Source of the DNA: a virus
DNA: 38,884 bases
Virus genome (UHGV): UHGV-0130462
Direction: 5' to 3' (one strand)
The translations under genes were made by a program, and so were the position numbers. Below are positions 24,628 to 35,573 of this stretch, piece by piece (position 1 is the stretch's first letter; every line of letters begins with the position of its first letter). Under the pieces are notes generated by a model. The model saw only the letters and a program-made list of their open reading frames with translations, was not told the origin of the DNA and made no database searches.

Positions 24628-25395
24628 TTACTCTGGGGCTGGTAAGGCTAATATTATATCATTCAGATGAGGTAATGCTTCTTTATCTTTACCCTTAAAG
24701 TAAGTTATTGATTTATTCTTTATCCAGTTGTTAATTTCAAAATTAAACATTGTCATTAACTCATTTGGATAAAGCCTTGCCTTAACAACTGGTCTTCTTC
24801 CATCATCAAATTCATGCTCATAAACAGGAAATGAATCAGGATCATAACCTCTAGCCCTGAGAATATCGCTAAAGAATCTACCTAAAGATATGTCAGGCAT
24901 AAGTTTTTGTGGGAGCATATACCCTCTAGATTCTAATGGAGCTAATAACTTTAAAGTCATTTGATCCAGCATAGAAAAGTGAGTTGGCGGTATTTTTTCC
25001 CGATTAATTAAGTAACGCCTTACATGATATGGCATCGCTGATTGATGCTGTTTTGCACCAGACATCCAATCGAATACCCATTTTGAAACAAGAACAGCGA
25101 ACTTAGGTGAAGCCCATTGACCTAAGTTGATAGCTACCTGAGGATGAACCCAAGTGCCTTGCATTTGAGAAAAACCACCTCTAACTATTTGAATTAATTC
25201 CGATACCGGAATTCCGGTATCGCTCGATAATTCAGCAACAAATGCTTTTGTTGAGTTATTATCAAGGTAATGATTGAGCCTCTTCCCAGCAGCTTGACAC
25301 ATTGCAGTAGCATTTATGTATCCATCATGAGCTCTTTGTGAAATAACTACATTGTTTTCCTGCCTAGAAATTAATGGCAATTCTAATTGGTTCAT
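24628..25395 (-). CDS. KilA-N domain protein with a C-terminal domain of unknown function
   Basis: N-terminal region (...HDGYINATAMCQAAGKRLNHYL...TKAFVAEL...) fits the KilA-N pattern; AAGGAG 5 nt upstream of ATG 25395 (ORF track start 25410 is TTG). Confidence 0.7.
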   Translation of the reverse strand: MNQLELPLISRQENNVVISQRAHDGYINATAMCQAAGKRLNHYLDNNSTKAFVAELSSDTGIPVSELIQIVRGGFSQMQGTWVHPQVAINLGQWASPKFAVLVSKWVFDWMSGAKQHQSAMPYHVRRYLINREKIPPTHFSMLDQMTLKLLAPLESRGYMLPQKLMPDISLGRFFSDILRARGYDPDSFPVYEHEFDDGRRPVVKARLYPNELMTMFNFEINNWIKNKSITYFKGKDKEALPHLNDIILALPAPE

Positions 25396-25470
25396 TACAT
25401 CTCCTTGCAAAAATCCAAATTACATTTTATGACAAGAAGATATAAAGCTAAAGGCAAATTAATATATACG

Positions 25471-25713: not shown

Positions 25714-26469
25714 TTAATTTGTTACCTTTTTTAGTATGTAATCTGCGTTACTTTCTCCTTTTTCACACTCAACCGCCAATGACTCATAAAATTTACTAAC
25801 TGAACGCTTCCATTGATCAATCGTAATCCCTAAATGAGACACAGCCTGAAAAGCCTTTGATGCAGGTATTCGCTCGTAACCACGACCAGAACAACGCTTA
25901 CAAGGCATACTGACAGCCTCACCGGTTAACCTTAGCGTTTCTTTGTCTATTGCCATACCACGCCCTTTACAGTCATTGCACGCACAAGAAACATAACCTT
26001 TACCGTTACACTTATCACAAGCGCATGACTCGGTGTCATCAATAATGCGAACTTCTTTACCAAAGACTTTTTTAACCTTAATCGCCTTTACCTTAAAACC
26101 TGATCCATTGCACTTTACGCACTCAATAACACTTGATGCCGATCTGCAATAATCTGCATAAGCGAATTTTGCGAGTATTTGCATTACCTTTCGCTTAACA
26201 TTCATATCGAGCTTGCGTAAGGCTGGAACCTTATCGCAATGATTCAATGCATGCCGAGTTAAAAGTTGTATCGCTTTCACTTTGTCATTCTGGCTTATCT
26301 CCATCTTTCCCGAGAACGCAGAAAAGCCGAATGACTCTTTACTCTGACACATACCAAAAGCGCCCATAACATCAGTACCGGTTAATCTATCTGGCGATGT
26401 TGAGCTAGGCGCATCTGATATTGATGTTGTTTTGGCGAAGTGATATTTAACAGCGCTTTCTAGGTTCAT
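25714..26469 (-). CDS. putative late-gene antiterminator (Q-like) with a DnaJ-type zinc finger
   Basis: Four CxxCxGxG repeats (CVKCNGSG, CDKCNGKG, CNDCKGRG, CKRCSGRG); sits between the nin genes and the late promoter/terminator; GGAGG upstream. Confidence 0.5.
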   Translation of the reverse strand: MNLESAVKYHFAKTTSISDAPSSTSPDRLTGTDVMGAFGMCQSKESFGFSAFSGKMEISQNDKVKAIQLLTRHALNHCDKVPALRKLDMNVKRKVMQILAKFAYADYCRSASSVIECVKCNGSGFKVKAIKVKKVFGKEVRIIDDTESCACDKCNGKGYVSCACNDCKGRGMAIDKETLRLTGEAVSMPCKRCSGRGYERIPASKAFQAVSHLGITIDQWKRSVSKFYESLAVECEKGESNADYILKKVTN

Positions 26470-31240: not shown

Positions 31241-32077
31241 TTAAAACCCCCTGTCAGCAAATTTACCTTCTCGAACACCCGTCAACGTTGTTTCTCTTAG
31301 CAGATAATCAATGTCAGCCGTCCAGCCTGTGTCGTTTTCACCAAAATAAAATGGCTTAGCCATTCGAACAAAAGCTCTTACGTAGGCTCGCCAACCATCA
31401 ACGTTTGCCGTTGCAAGGTTTTTGATTATCTTCCTGATCCGTGTTTTACGTTTCTCGTTAGCTTCCACAGCGTGAGGTAATCTGTCGCCAACCTCCTCGT
31501 TGTAGGCATTGAGATATTCATCGTAGTTAATTGGAGTTGATTTTCTCTTGGTAGGTTTTACCGATTCTCCCCCTTTCACCTCGTGAGGGGTAAGGGGTGT
31601 ATTACTTTCTTTCTTTTCTTTTGTAATAGTTTCTTTTGTGTGTCCCTGTTTTGGTGACAGCGCTGTCACGCTTTTGGTGACACTTTTTGTCACTGTTTTG
31701 GTGACAATGACACCGTTTTGGTGACACTCATGAATATCCCACTCAGTTAGGTTTTTATTAGGCCCTATCGCCATACCAACTTTCACTATAACTTTCATAG
31801 CGATAAGCTCATTTTTTGCCTTGTTAACTTTCTGCCTTGGTAGTCTAGTTAACTCTGCCAACTGACTGTCTGATATGCGGTCTGTTTTCTTATTAAACCC
31901 ATAAGTTTTCCTGCAAATAGCATGAGCAACTTTTGCCTGATTCTTTGTTAGGTTTGCGCCAATTAATTCTTCGTAAAGCTCATTAGCTAATTTTGTATAG
32001 CCATTATCAAGATCTGCCACGTTAGGCCTCTCTTGCCGTCGTTGATTACCAAAATCTGCATATGCAACATTACTCAT
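31241..32077 (-). CDS. replication initiator, lambda O-like
   Basis: N-terminus (...NVADLDNGYTKLANELYEEL...LTKNQAKVAHAICRKTYGFNKKTDRISDSQLAELT...) parallels the lambda O N-terminal domain; iteron array inside the gene. Confidence 0.85.
   Translation of the reverse strand: MSNVAYADFGNQRRQERPNVADLDNGYTKLANELYEELIGANLTKNQAKVAHAICRKTYGFNKKTDRISDSQLAELTRLPRQKVNKAKNELIAMKVIVKVGMAIGPNKNLTEWDIHECHQNGVIVTKTVTKSVTKSVTALSPKQGHTKETITKEKKESNTPLTPHEVKGGESVKPTKRKSTPINYDEYLNAYNEEVGDRLPHAVEANEKRKTRIRKIIKNLATANVDGWRAYVRAFVRMAKPFYFGENDTGWTADIDYLLRETTLTGVREGKFADRGF
31649..31726. repeat. origin iterons: four direct TTTTGGTGACA repeats at 20-24 bp spacing inside the O-like gene, next to an AT-rich tract
   Basis: Read directly at 31649, 31672, 31696 and 31716; partial inverted TGTCAC/GTGACA elements. 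Confidence 0.75.
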
Positions 32078-32246
32078 GCGATCCTCCTAGTAATTTCTCA
32101 CGATGCTCATTTCTCAATTTTGCATCTTCGAATGCTTCCTTTAGACGTTTACTTCCTAACGGTGTCACTTCTCGTAACGTCTTATCTCGCATGATGTTTT
32201 TATGCACTTCGTGACGATTAAACCAATGATTAACTTTCTTCTTCAT
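32070..32246 (-). CDS. hypothetical small basic protein (58 aa) between cII-like and O
   Basis: ATG 32246; its stop overlaps the O start (ATGAGTAA); below the ORF-track cutoff. Confidence 0.35.
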   Translation of the reverse strand: MKKKVNHWFNRHEVHKNIMRDKTLREVTPLGSKRLKEAFEDAKLRNEHREKLLGGSHE

Positions 32247-32279
32247 GGTATAATTTCCTTATTCCTAAGCTGTATCAGC

Positions 32280-32306
32280 AAAAGGAAAGCTCAAAATCAG
32301 CTTCCC
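32280..32306 (-). terminator. rho-independent terminator downstream of the cII-like gene
   Basis: Minus-strand RNA: GGGAAGCU-GAUUUUG-AGCUUUCC followed by a U run. Confidence 0.45.
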
Positions 32307-32363
32307 TTTAATGCTGGTTATTGATACAGTGTATTTGTTAGTTTAAATGGTTAAGTCCATTTG

Positions 32364-32690
32364 TTAATGCGCCTCGGTTGCTCCAACAATCGGGGCGTTT
32401 TCTTTTGTTCTCACCTGAGAAAGTTCACCTATTTGTTTCCATAAAAAGCGGTATTCTTCCTCTGATATTTTCCTCTCTCCTTCCATCACAAAATCGACTA
32501 TCCCTGATGCGACTAATGTCTCGCATATCTCAGGATATTTTTCAGTTCTGCGTAGAATGGTTGAGTCATGAACACCTAATGTTTTAGCGACCACCGACTG
32601 AGTTTTATTTCTCAATGCCTGTAATGCCGAAGCCATCAAGTGATTTGAAATGAATTTATTAAATTGTTTGCGTGTATTTGTGTATTCCAT
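32364..32690 (-). CDS. CII-like transcriptional activator (HTH)
   Basis: Position after cro and HTH segment ALRNKTQSVVAKTLGVHDSTILR. Confidence 0.5.
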   Translation of the reverse strand: MEYTNTRKQFNKFISNHLMASALQALRNKTQSVVAKTLGVHDSTILRRTEKYPEICETLVASGIVDFVMEGERKISEEEYRFLWKQIGELSQVRTKENAPIVGATEAH

Positions 32691-32779
32691 GGTTTAATTT
32701 CCTTATTAAATTACTTCTCGTTAGAGAACAGCAGTAATGATCCGTGGCTCATTCCATATGAGCGGATTGTTGATATGTT

Positions 32780-32813
32780 CCACAATGGCGGAACCTAAAT
32801 TGTGAAAAGAGCG
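32780..32813 (-). promoter_or_regulatory. nutR: boxA (CGCTCTTTT) plus boxB-like hairpin (CCGCCAUUGUGG)
   Basis: Minus strand, just downstream of the cro stop; same two elements recur at nutL. Confidence 0.5.
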
Positions 32814-32819
32814 GGTAAA

Positions 32820-33038
32820 TCAGTGAAAAATGTCTGGGTATAAAACTTCTTTAGATAATCCAGTAGCCATCATAAATTCACGCATTTTTGTTCTTGGTAG
32901 AGAACCACCGTTCTTTTTGATGGCTGAAATTCGCTGAGGTGTTAAGCCAACCTTTTTCGCGAGGTCTTTTTGCTTTCCACCTACTGCACTTACTGCAATA
33001 TCAATTGGTGTTTGCTTTTCCATTAAGTATAACTCCAT
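32820..33038 (-). CDS. cro: Cro-like repressor
   Basis: 72-aa HTH protein (QKDLAKKVGLTPQRISAIK) divergent from cI across the operator region. Confidence 0.6.
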   Translation of the reverse strand: MELYLMEKQTPIDIAVSAVGGKQKDLAKKVGLTPQRISAIKKNGGSLPRTKMREFMMATGLSKEVLYPDIFH

Positions 33039-33044
33039 GTTTAT

Positions 33045-33121
33045 TTATCAACATAATGTTAATCATTATCGAGCCATAAATCAACATAAAGATGATTGGT
33101 TTAAATAAACAAAATGTTTAT
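33045..33121. promoter_or_regulatory. OR: three dyad-symmetric operator sites sharing (T)CAACAT/ATGTT(G) half-sites, with divergent pR/pRM
   Basis: ATCAACATAATGTTAAT (33047-33063), ATCAACATAAAGATGAT (33080-33096), AAACAAAATGTTT (33107-33119); candidate pRM TTGGTT-17-TATCTT. Confidence 0.55.
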
Positions 33122-33141
33122 CTTTGTGTTCGGAGGTTCGC

Positions 33142-33852
33142 ATGGAACTTAGAGATCGAATTAATTACTTGCTAAAGGCTGAAAATCTAAAGCAAAAGGA
33201 CTTAGCTGAGAAACTAAATGCCAGTGCGCAAACAGTTAATAACTGGCTAAAAAGAAACTCAATTAGCAGGGAAGCAGCGCAACAGATTAGTGATATTTTT
33301 GGTTATTCACTTGACTGGTTACTGATTGGCAAAGGTGAGCCGAAAATAAAAAATATTGGACAATCAGAAATACCTGATGAAAACAAATTTATTCCTCTTC
33401 GAGTTTGGGATAGTCTAACACCTCTTGAGGCAGATGAAGTTGAGGTTCCTTTTTTGAAGGATATAGAATTTGCTTGTGGTGATGGATCGTTTACAGACAC
33501 TGATTACAACGGATTTAAACTAAGGTTTTCTAAAGCAACAATGCGGAGGATCGGAGCCAACAGTGACGGAGAAGGTGTGATTTGCTTCCCAGCCAGAGGG
33601 GATAGCATGGAGCCTGTTATATTTAATGGTACTACTGTTGCTGTAAACACTAGAGATAAGAAAATTGTTGATGGTAAAATTTATGCGATAAATCAAGGTG
33701 GGCTAAAAAGAGTGAAAATGCTTCATCAAACCACGCCTAAAACATTAACAATTCGTAGCTTCAATAAAATTGACTACCCAGACGAAGAAGTGCCAATAGA
33801 GGCAATAGAGATCATCGGTAGAGTTTTCTGGTGGTCTGTATTAGACGTCTAA
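33142..33852 (+). CDS. cI: CI-type prophage repressor (HTH plus LexA-like S24 autopeptidase domain)
   Basis: N-terminal HTH (LKQKDLAEKLNASAQTVNNWL) and C-terminal GDSMEP ... LKRVK catalytic Ser/Lys; GGAGG 6 nt upstream of ATG 33142. Confidence 0.9.
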   Translation: MELRDRINYLLKAENLKQKDLAEKLNASAQTVNNWLKRNSISREAAQQISDIFGYSLDWLLIGKGEPKIKNIGQSEIPDENKFIPLRVWDSLTPLEADEVEVPFLKDIEFACGDGSFTDTDYNGFKLRFSKATMRRIGANSDGEGVICFPARGDSMEPVIFNGTTVAVNTRDKKIVDGKIYAINQGGLKRVKMLHQTTPKTLTIRSFNKIDYPDEEVPIEAIEIIGRVFWWSVLDV

Positions 33853-33868
33853 TCAGCACTAACAAATG

Positions 33869-33897
33869 AAGCCACTTAACAAAAGTGGCTTTTTTTA
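33869..33897 (+). terminator. rho-independent terminator after cI
   Basis: AAGCCACUU-AACAA-AAGUGGCUU perfect 9-bp stem followed by U6. Confidence 0.65.
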
Positions 33898-33954
33898 TGC
33901 TCAAAATACACCTCTCGTATATCAAATGTTTATTTTTACAAAATAAATCCCTTT

Positions 33955-34032
33955 TAAAATCAACACAAAATCAACTTTTTCAGAAAATAAATCAACATAG
34001 AGTTGACTTTAAAATCAACATAATGTTTAATT
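33955..34032 (+). promoter_or_regulatory. OL operators and pL promoter
   Basis: Repeated AAATCAAC motifs including dyads TCAAC-ATAGA-GTTGA and ATCAACATAATGTT; TTGACT (34003-34008), 17-nt spacer, TTTAAT (34026-34031). Confidence 0.55.
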
Positions 34033-34072
34033 AACTCATCGAAGGCAAGGAGCCATAGATAAACAGGATGTT

Positions 34073-34106
34073 CGCTCTTTTACAAATTAACTCCCGCCAT
34101 TGTGGG
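34073..34106 (+). promoter_or_regulatory. nutL: boxA (CGCTCTTTT) plus boxB-like hairpin (CCCGCCAUUGUGGG)
   Basis: About 40 nt downstream of the pL -10; same elements as nutR. Confidence 0.5.
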
Positions 34107-34345
34107 AAAGTTTCAAAACTCCAAGTGAGTATTGGGATGCGGTTACGCTGAACCAGATGCAAGCAAAACCAATGTCAGACGGTGTGAGTCCGTCGAGTAA
34201 TAACAACGCTGTTGATCATTAACTTAGGAAGGTGAACAGCAAATAAAGTGGTGTTATTGCAGAGGATGCAAGCAAGGCTGACAAGACAGTTCGAGACTGA
34301 TAGCCAATGACCGCATCACCAATACTTACTAACCGAGGGTAAATT

Positions 34346-34618
34346 ATGGCTCAAATTACTTACTTACCGCGCACTGGTAAGACAAATTCAAAGATGCGTC
34401 GTTATATCGCTAGAGGAGAATTAATGGCGCGTAAGGCTTTAGAGGAAGCTAATCGCGGTCGCACTACTGAGGAAATTTGGGATTCAATCATTAAACCAGT
34501 TGATGAAACAGATGTGCTAGCAAGTTTGGTGTTAAGTCTTAAATCATCACCAGATGCACGCAAAACATTAAAACTGAAAAAACAGCCGAGCAGTGAGTTC
34601 GGGGTTACGGCGAGATAA
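34346..34618 (+). CDS. N-like antitermination protein (P22 gp24-like)
   Basis: MAQITY...GKTNSKMRRY arginine-rich N-terminus and ...VTAR C-terminus parallel P22 gp24; first gene after pL/nutL. Confidence 0.6.
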   Translation: MAQITYLPRTGKTNSKMRRYIARGELMARKALEEANRGRTTEEIWDSIIKPVDETDVLASLVLSLKSSPDARKTLKLKKQPSSEFGVTAR

Positions 34619-34632
34619 ATAGGAGAAGTAAG

Positions 34633-34950
34633 ATGAAATTTGAAGATTTAACAGAAGCGTCTCAAGAATCGGCTCGTGCGGTTCTATCAGCCATGCTAGT
34701 TGATAGTTATCGACGCAATTTTAAATTAACTCGTGATGATATTTTAGAATTAGGTCATAGAGTTAGAAAGGCATTTGTGACCTTGGAAAGTGAAGAGCCT
34801 AAAGCTGAATTATGTTCTGGTTCAGGTATGTGTAGTGACTTGCATCCTGATGCCTCGTTAAGTGTGGGAGGGCTTGGCATTCAGCAAGGGCATGGAATTG
34901 CTATGAGTGAAAATAACGCAAATCAGTTAAGAAAAAAAGGAATGCTTTAG
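34633..34950 (+). CDS. hypothetical early-left protein
   Basis: ORF track. Confidence 0.5.
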   Translation: MKFEDLTEASQESARAVLSAMLVDSYRRNFKLTRDDILELGHRVRKAFVTLESEEPKAELCSGSGMCSDLHPDASLSVGGLGIQQGHGIAMSENNANQLRKKGML

Positions 34951-34961
34951 TTAACTAAAAT

Positions 34962-35573
34962 TCATTTATTAAAATATCCAGTGAATTGCCTAACGCATTC
35001 TGAGTAATAATCGGGATTAATTATAAACTCATTGGTATGTCTCATACTCAAATGCTTTGACGAATCATGGAGAATGTCTTTATCCAACAGTGAGTTAATA
35101 ACAGGGTCATTTCTTTTCCCGCCTAGAAATTCCTTTCCAGTGTCAATGAACATGGCTAGGTAATCCTTTTCATCCTCAGAAAGGCTTGAAATAACAAATG
35201 ATATTTTGTGCTGATTATTACGCTTTATTGATTTTAACTTTACGGAATTAATTATACCAAAAGTTAATAAATATATTCTTTTTGTTATATCTGAAAGAAA
35301 GAAGCTAACAGGAATAATAAAAAGAACAGCATTGATATTATTTACCGAGCCAAAAATTGGCTTTGCGTTAAGAAAATCAAAGAATGATTCAGGTAAAAAT
35401 AACCACAAACTGACCAGATATAGCAACCACACCATAGTAAACCTCAGTGAAATTTGGTTTTTCAAATAGGCAATCACTGCCTCAATCCAATTCGGCATGG
35501 TTGATAATCTCTTATTCTGTAGGGGTAAGTGGATTATAGCCGATTTCTCGATGTAGGGGTACACGAGAACCAC
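34962..35573 (-). CDS. AT-rich membrane protein (two N-terminal TM helices plus soluble C-terminal domain), transcribed against the pL operon; superinfection-exclusion or abortive-infection candidate
   Basis: ORF track; hydrophobic segments FTMVWLLYLVSLWLFL and INAVLFIIPVSFFL; convergent with the upstream plus-strand gene, divergent from the next; strongly AT-rich. An alternative GTG start at 35564 has a GAGGTG site upstream. Confidence 0.6.
   Translation of the reverse strand: MVLVYPYIEKSAIIHLPLQNKRLSTMPNWIEAVIAYLKNQISLRFTMVWLLYLVSLWLFLPESFFDFLNAKPIFGSVNNINAVLFIIPVSFFLSDITKRIYLLTFGIINSVKLKSIKRNNQHKISFVISSLSEDEKDYLAMFIDTGKEFLGGKRNDPVINSLLDKDILHDSSKHLSMRHTNEFIINPDYYSECVRQFTGYFNK

Follow-up and report, generated by a model that had tools for sequence, protein, structure and literature searches.

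Putative nut sites with a CANU-loop boxB in a P22-like Proteus phage and their pairing with a family of N-like proteins

The recognition of boxB RNA by the N peptide is a textbook case of peptide-RNA recognition and of processive antitermination, and the lambda N-boxB pair is a standard tethering tool. The virus genome UHGV-0130462 (38,884 nucleotides, hereafter the window), which is that of a P22-like temperate phage or prophage of Proteus, carries on either side of its cI-type repressor gene two similar sequences that a first-pass annotation had taken for the antitermination sites nutL and nutR. Their hairpin loop is neither that of lambda nor that of P22, which raises the question of whether they are nut sites at all and, if so, which protein reads them. 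Judged from sequence evidence, the two sites are very probably nutR and nutL, and the product of the first gene behind the early-left promoter pL is very probably an N-type antiterminator whose arginine-rich motif (ARM) would bind a CANU boxB in N/Nus antitermination.

A matched pair of sites with a covarying hairpin

The composite pattern CGCTCTTTT-N(10-16)-CCGCCATTGTGG was searched in the window, using 100 dinucleotide-preserving shuffles as the null. It had two exact matches, one on the minus strand (32780-32813) and one on the plus strand (34073-34105), and all 100 shuffles gave 0 matches. The 9-mer CGCTCTTTT and the 12-mer CCGCCATTGTGG are both present as exact copies in the window only at these two sites, with a spacer of 13 nt at nutR and 12 nt at nutL, as had been claimed from the letters alone (a shared boxA and, 12-13 nt on, a shared 12-mer). 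Allowing one mismatch, the 9-mer was found 14 times in the window for 11.2 expected; since this is no enrichment, the signal resides in the 9-mer and 12-mer combined and not in boxA alone.

At both sites boxA precedes boxB on the transcribed strand, and the positions are those known from lambda and P22, nutR between cro and cII and nutL between the inferred pL and the first early-left gene. The nutR boxA (CGCUCUUUUCACAA, 32800..32813, minus strand), an exact pattern match close to the consensus CGCUCUUUAACAA and conserved in relatives, begins 7 nt past the stop codon of the cro-like gene at 32820. The nutL boxA (CGCUCUUUUACAA, 34073..34085, plus strand), also an exact match, lies about 35 nt past the inferred pL start. 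In its full extent of 13-14 nt, boxA reads CGCUCUUUU(C)ACAA, one base off the consensus CGCUCUUUAACAA, and the hairpin follows after a gap of 8-9 nt at both sites. RNA folding of 23-nt segments with RNAfold gave the short stem with a CAUU loop that had been proposed: GUUCCGC-CAUU-GUGGAAC at nutR (32777..32794, minus strand; 7 bp; -9.3 kcal/mol, z -3.19) and UCCCGC-CAUU-GUGGGA at nutL (34092..34107, plus strand; 6 bp; -8.6 kcal/mol, z -3.39), each with a G.U second pair. The stem reaches past the 12-mer common to the two sites, and its outer pairs differ between nutL and nutR in a compensatory manner (UCCCGC/GUGGGA versus GUUCCGC/GUGGAAC). The first outline of the sites was therefore right as to the presence of boxA and 12-mer and required revision as to their limits, boxA being longer (13-14 nt) and the core being G-C-[CANU]-G-U instead of the whole 12-mer. 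A search of Rfam at permissive thresholds over 32000-35000 returned weak, chance-level matches only and no nut or boxB family.

Relatives of the window were collected by searching the 90-amino-acid protein encoded behind nutL against IMG/VR and one genome per species, which led to 65 related loci; two further look-ups added Morganella examples. The nutL and nutR sites of Proteus, Providencia, Morganella and Photorhabdus prophages provided 14 distinct boxB variants. Across them, 96.9% of cells were standard pairs, a value falling to 37-64% when the partner strand was slid as a control. Double-sided changes were found in 4 of the 7 pairs, including the series C-G, U.G, U-A at a single position, and the covariation score was reached by 0/500 shuffles. 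The apex 5'-G-C-[C-A-N-U]-G-U-3' was invariant in all 14 variants: its three apical pairs (C-G, G.U and C-G) and the first, second and fourth bases of the loop never changed, while the third base was U, C, G or A. Such an invariant apex on a covarying stem implies sequence-specific recognition. The conserved G.U pair speaks for RNA and not a DNA site, as does the constant orientation of the hairpin, which always follows boxA in the direction of transcription, and the data argue for boxB as an RNA element under selection as opposed to a DNA palindrome.

The same boxA and boxB elements were present in every locus whose N-like protein shares the N-terminal motif of the window protein (class A, see below). 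The nutL boxA was identical in 24 of 28 related class-A loci; it was the exact consensus CGCUCUUUAACAA in Photorhabdus (L028, L029, L054) and AGCUCUUUAACAA in Morganella. A lack of conservation in relatives had been named beforehand as what would speak against the sites; the elements were kept in 28/28 related loci, with compensatory changes in the stem.

The 12-mer was also considered as a DNA palindrome, a reading we rejected in view of the conserved G.U pair. Separately, many relatives have a third boxA-like sequence, CTCGCTCTTTT(C/T)ACAATTGTTTTACGAGCCAT, on the strand opposite to N and 3-5 kb downstream of that gene (minus strand; L003 9244, L006 9660, L007 9786, L008 8230 and others), at places outside the window. 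It lacks a following CANU hairpin and is probably coding sequence.

An N-like protein family and its boxB classes

The candidate N is a protein of 90 amino acids encoded by the first gene of the early-left operon (34346..34618, plus strand), designated by its position and by synteny with P22 gene 24 and sieB. Its ARM covers approximately residues 10-36 (nt 34373-34453). The AlphaFold model is non-globular (pTM 0.26), and its most confident element is a helix over residues 15-36, which is the ARM (SKMRRYIARGELMARKALEEAN). The protein is collinear with P22 gp24, as taken from the annotated record, sharing an M-x-x-I-T-Y start, the N-[SA]-K-x-R-R start of the ARM, I-x-D-S-I and a terminal TAR; N14, K16 and R18 are invariant across all ARM classes and P22.

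The window protein did not reach the gathering threshold (27.9 bits) of the Pfam model PF25694 N_peptide. Two Photorhabdus relatives, P0102 and P0104, which are 71-72% identical to it over residues 1-68 and carry a class-A ARM one to three residues off that of the window, scored 29.8 and 29.4 bits over their full length against this cut-off (P22 gp24, 152 bits), and the Photorhabdus loci L029, L054 and L028 have the same CANU boxB. Because relatives with the same ARM and boxB pass PF25694, the window protein is placed by sequence in the P22 gp24 family, through its relatives and not by a direct profile match. The family has been largely without a name: there are 137 database relatives, and among the 120 listed the named ones are 'hypothetical' or 'uncharacterised' apart from two Photorhabdus entries, called 'transcriptional antitermination N peptide' in UniRef. 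A tblastn search of 50,697 phage records recovered three Proteus phages only, each time a 'hypothetical protein', and no P22 match; a profile search of PDB sequences with the N-like protein gave chance matches only.

The family is mosaic. At least seven N-terminal motifs occur in free combination with a central block (EEIWDSIIKPVDETDVLA) and three alternative tails at the C terminus, and each of these motifs is associated with its own boxB class. Class A, that of the window, has the ARM GKTNSKMRRYIARGELMARKA and the boxB ..GC-CANU-GU.., found at both nutL and nutR in 28/28 loci with flanks available. Class B combines the ARM DNLKMRRYKRNGEYYKQRNE with GCUCAGAGGAAC(G/U)UCUC(C/A)GAGC, and class B' the ARM ENSKIRRRRKQGEFLARKIA with GCUCAGA(A/G)UAAAUU(U/C)UCAGAGC. 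Class C has the ARM NAKSRRLAKQMAFWDRKREEY and the boxB GCUCUGAAUAUGUGUUAGAGC with covarying relatives; in class D the ARM NSKKRQERRRKAWIAERR, visibly P22-like, goes with a GCAUC loop carried on two unrelated stems. Class E pairs the ARM RRYERRAAFLAKK with ..GG-CANU-CU.., the same loop and G.U on a flipped closing pair, and class F the ARM NSRQRYKLRRKQ with a lambda-like UGAAAAU loop. No locus (0) with a crossed combination was seen in nut context. The suggestion of a co-evolved N-like specificity, made at first for the window only, thus finds its counterpart in a one-to-one pairing of ARM motifs and boxB hairpins within a single protein family. Two irregularities were noted. In class D nutL, boxA is degenerate (TGTTCTTTAA) and a matching GCAUC hairpin was not seen, and L030, with an ARM akin to that of class B, carries a boxB variant that escaped the class motif.

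The distance between nutR and the N gene gives this association part of its weight. Between nutR and nutL, the 29 class-A loci contain 15 unrelated immunity cassettes of 1.1-3.7 kb, unrelated meaning that they have less than 30% of 12-mers in common with each other. Since these 15 cassettes separate nutR from the ARM, the match at nutR has been maintained through repeated recombination.

Further observations concern the organization of these loci. The nut sites bracket an exchangeable immunity module (32814-34072 in the window), and in some relatives extra genes are inserted between cI and pL, with HipA_2-domain and BstA_C genes in L069 and L072 and an NYN-domain gene in phage Brookers. In the class B loci L031, L055 and L056, an extra hairpin of 45-55 nt lies between boxA and boxB at both nutL and nutR, which brings the distance between them to about 60-76 nt with the boxB sequence kept (e.g. 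L055, 4808-4900 on the plus strand and 2006-1910 on the minus strand). In L045-L050 (e.g. L046, 4488-5078), an open reading frame (ORF) for a 196-amino-acid HNH/AP2-type endonuclease sits at the N position, its frame continuing into the final 25 codons of N (EKSAPDTRKTLKLKKQPSSEFGVTAR); no ARM-bearing N precedes it, and N has apparently been replaced or disrupted there by a homing-endonuclease gene.

The class E loci, L065-L068 (Xenorhabdus) and L066 (Proteus cibi), have a related ARM, RRYERRAxFLAxK. Their boxB, at nutL and nutR, has the C-A-N-U loop and the G.U second pair of the window with G-C as closing pair, and a specificity switch of a single base pair between classes A and E is possible. 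In a class F example (L061, 4735-4790, Xenorhabdus anantnagensis) the hairpin is CCUCCU-UGAAAAU-GGGAGG, its loop holding the lambda-type GAAAA.

Antitermination and competing explanations

If these elements work as an N/nut system, the pR (minus strand) and pL (plus strand) transcripts would each carry a boxA that recruits the host NusB and NusE (S10), and the ARM helix of N (approximately residues 15-36) would bind the G-C-[C-A-N-U]-G-U apex of boxB. Together with NusA and NusG, the other parts of N would then make RNA polymerase resistant to termination. Read-through from pR may extend over cII, O, the helicase, the nin genes and Q, Q being the presumed downstream beneficiary, and read-through from pL over the early-left genes. 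Physical binding, dependence on Nus factors and the overriding of terminators are what we infer from lambda and P22, and a true tetraloop at the apex is likewise an inference.

Several results weigh against this picture. The window protein is without a Pfam (none at E up to 1), PHROG or NCBIfam match, and its direct comparison with P22 gp24 is weak, with a BLASTP E of 0.005 over 20 residues and, when the family was aligned with hhalign, an E of 4e-4 at a probability of only 34%. The association of ARM and boxB classes was counted in the very loci from which both sets of motifs had been derived; moreover the close linkage of nutL with the ARM leaves the match at nutR as the sole independent evidence. 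Since the loop does not resemble GNRA, recognition in the manner of lambda or P22 is not to be assumed. Finally, terminator scans from nutR to Q and downstream of N revealed no convincing intrinsic terminator, and tR1- or tL1-type sites were not located by them. In lambda, the key terminators overridden by N are Rho-dependent, and those overridden here are presumably Rho-dependent as well.

One alternative is that boxA works with the host Nus factors alone, as in ribosomal RNA (rRNA) operons, the hairpin having a structural or processing function and the 90-amino-acid ORF another role. It can draw on the fact that the boxA of the window is nearer the rrn consensus than the boxA of lambda itself, and on the missing direct profile match of the protein. 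We nevertheless consider it improbable, as the window, in a phage immunity region, has boxA followed by the hairpin, the order of phage nut sites, whereas rrn leaders have the order boxB-boxA-boxC; the sequence-specific recognition implied by apex and stem does not fit a purely structural hairpin, the hairpin class switches exactly with the N-terminal motif of the adjacent protein, and relatives of this protein pass the Pfam model of P22 N.

It is still less probable, and in our opinion very much so, that the 12-mer acts at the DNA level, for example as an operator or a boundary of recombination, bound by a protein such as Cro, cII or a recombinase. Its copies do flank an immunity cassette that varies among relatives and could mark exchange boundaries. 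Read as DNA, however, the repeat is imperfect, with a mismatch at the constant G.U position; every change, the U.G intermediate among them, keeps the RNA paired, both copies have a fixed orientation relative to transcription and boxA, and the actual operators have another motif, of 17 bp. As for mere chance, or a recent local duplication without function, the motifs are short and the 9-mer with one mismatch is not enriched, but 0/100 shuffles matched the composite pattern, and the sites are conserved in four genera, where the sequence separating them is unrelated and their own substitutions are compensatory. This last explanation is effectively refuted and its probability negligible.

The preferred interpretation, an N-type protein acting on CANU nut sites, is supported by likeness of working and by descent, which place the system with the P22 and lambda N/nut systems. 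P22 has, like the window, pL, nutL, gene 24 and a convergent sieB on the left, cro, nutR, c1/cII, O-like, DnaB-like, nin and Q genes on the right, boxA before boxB, collinear N proteins and the same type of virion genes. With lambda the window shares the N-terminal ARM, two nut sites, boxA followed by boxB, a Q cascade and a structured leader between nutL and N, whereas lambda N and the window protein have no detectable sequence similarity (no Pfam match). The lambda boxB loop is GAAAA or GAAGA and adopts a GNRA-like fold. The annotated boxB sequences of P22 are GCGCUGACAAAGCGC on the left and CCGCCGACAACGCGG on the right, with a GACAA pentaloop, in contrast to the C-A-N-U loop and obligatory G.U second pair of the window; the ARMs differ as well (AKTRRHERRRKLAIERD in P22, SKMRRYIARGELMARKA in the window). 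A pentaloop of lambda/P22 type (G-N-(N)-R-A with a sheared G.A, on a closing Watson-Crick pair) was not found, the loop being C-A-N-U, of four bases with neither G nor A at its ends, in 14/14 variants, and the early remark that it is unlike lambda GAAAA and P22 boxB agrees with the P22 annotation and with the lambda loop as generally known. HK022 put is a two-stem RNA that causes antitermination without boxA and without an N protein; the window, by contrast, has boxA, a single short hairpin and an N-like gene.

The P22 GACAA pentaloop folds GNRA-like with one base extruded (PMC12550061). Phage phi21 resembles the window in having a boxB loop other than a G-N-R-(N)-A pentaloop together with its own cognate ARM; its CUAACC hexaloop has a UAAC core that mimics GNRA (PDB 1NYB, PMC12550061), whereas CANU has neither that core nor a known structure. 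In epsilon34, gp43 has a conserved C-terminal part and 27 divergent N-terminal residues, which were read as a novel BoxB specificity (PMC2629481), and modular exchange of the N- and C-terminus has been described for N of phage L and P22 (PMC8022706). These studies deal with Salmonella phages and include no CANU boxB, no Morganellaceae family and no pairing of ARM and boxB classes. The literature search found no paper joining boxB and nutL with Proteus, nor one describing nut sites in phages of Proteus and its relatives; among the papers listed, the one naming boxA, boxB and these genera concerns rRNA antitermination.

A further proposal is more tentative, and we give it somewhat less than an even chance: the CANU loop with its obligatory G.U may be read by the ARM through a fold unlike GNRA mimicry, the family providing at least seven mutually orthogonal peptide-RNA pairs. 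If true, the specificities of classes A and E would be set by one base pair and a few ARM residues.

The immunity region, the N leader and significance

The remaining genes are in keeping with a temperate P22-like phage. The virion genes (terminase, portal, scaffold, coat, ejection protein and tailspike) are P22-like, an integrase is also present, and the nearest DNA relatives are Proteus and Providencia phages. The immunity region has the layout of lambda and P22 in mirror image, as first described, with cI and the N candidate found on the plus strand and pL placed there as inferred hexamers only. The repressor gene (33142..33852, plus strand) matches Pfam Peptidase_S24 (4e-17) and Phage_CI_repr (5e-12) and phrog_4. 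The inferred pL (34003..34031, plus strand) was read from the sequence as a -35 TTGACT at 34003-34008, a 17-nt spacer and a -10 TTTAAT at 34026-34031; it overlaps two operators (repeats 33991-34007 and 34014-34030), and a promoter scan, which demands an A at position 2 of the -10, did not report it. The 17-bp operator pattern was found 9 times for 1.1 expected, all but one within the oR and oL regions, and defines three oR operators (33047-33063, 33080-33096 and 33105-33121) with divergent pR and pRM.

On the minus strand these three operators are followed by the cro-like gene, nutR, the cII-like gene, an O-like initiator, a DnaB-type helicase, nin genes (NinB, NinI-like and NinG) and Q. The cro-like helix-turn-helix gene (32820..33038, minus strand), upstream of nutR, was assigned by HTH_3 and phrog_35 matches and by position. 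The cII-like activator (32364..32690, minus strand), the first gene past nutR, matches Pfam Phage_CII above the cut-off and phrog_191 at 3.5e-17, and the Q-type late antiterminator (25714..26469, minus strand) matches Pfam Antiterm (2.4e-34) and phrog_127 (1.6e-83). A strong terminator lies past Q at 25613-25590 (minus strand). On the left, a SieB superinfection-exclusion homologue (34962-35573, minus strand; Pfam PF14163, 4e-13) is convergent with the N-like gene.

Two hairpins and one gene of this region deserve mention on their own. A bidirectional terminator hairpin (33868-33892, both strands) separates the end of cI from the oL/pL region and is overlapped by a weak Rfam match to STnc250 (E 0.047, below the gathering score). 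At 32369-32398 on the plus strand, a strong terminator-like hairpin of 12 bp with a T run lies on the antisense strand of the cII-like gene at its 3' end, the position of the oop RNA terminator in P22 and lambda; it is overlapped by a weak Rfam Spot_42 match (32316-32404, E 1.7). Between Q and the holin, a KilA-N/BstA-like abortive-infection gene (24628-25410, minus strand) is flanked by strong intrinsic terminators at 25613-25590 and 24609-24587, an arrangement suggestive of a late-leader moron.

The stretch of 273 nt separating nutL from N, the N leader, is unusually structured as well (z -4.16, with 0/100 shuffles equally stable). Its fold contains a long-range duplex of 22 bp on the plus strand, 34124-34145 with 34308-34330, which encloses most of the leader, stops 16 nt short of the N start codon and is backed by compensatory pairs. 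An equivalent duplex of 19-27 bp was found in classes A, B, B', C, E and F, with double-sided changes in 7/21 pairs. The lambda N leader has an RNase III site involved in N autoregulation, and by analogy the duplex is a candidate for a site of this type.

To our knowledge, solved structures cover three boxB recognition modes only, all of them mimics of the GNRA fold. The CANU tetraloop with its obligatory G.U is outside these structurally characterised modes, and a natural boxB of this kind, with a conserved wobble and validated by comparison, would add a fourth. The understanding of the mechanism is unchanged, the system being a new specificity class of a known switch. The idea that a divergent N terminus means a new BoxB specificity is already known from epsilon34 (PMC2629481), and new specificities as such will not surprise a specialist; they are a possible source of orthogonal peptide-RNA pairs. 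With at least seven matched ARM-boxB classes on one scaffold, the family offers a panel for studying how specificity is encoded and for orthogonal tethers. For the prophages of Proteus, Providencia, Morganella, Photorhabdus and Xenorhabdus, the analysis gives a probable function, that of an N-type antiterminator, to a family of 'hypothetical proteins'.

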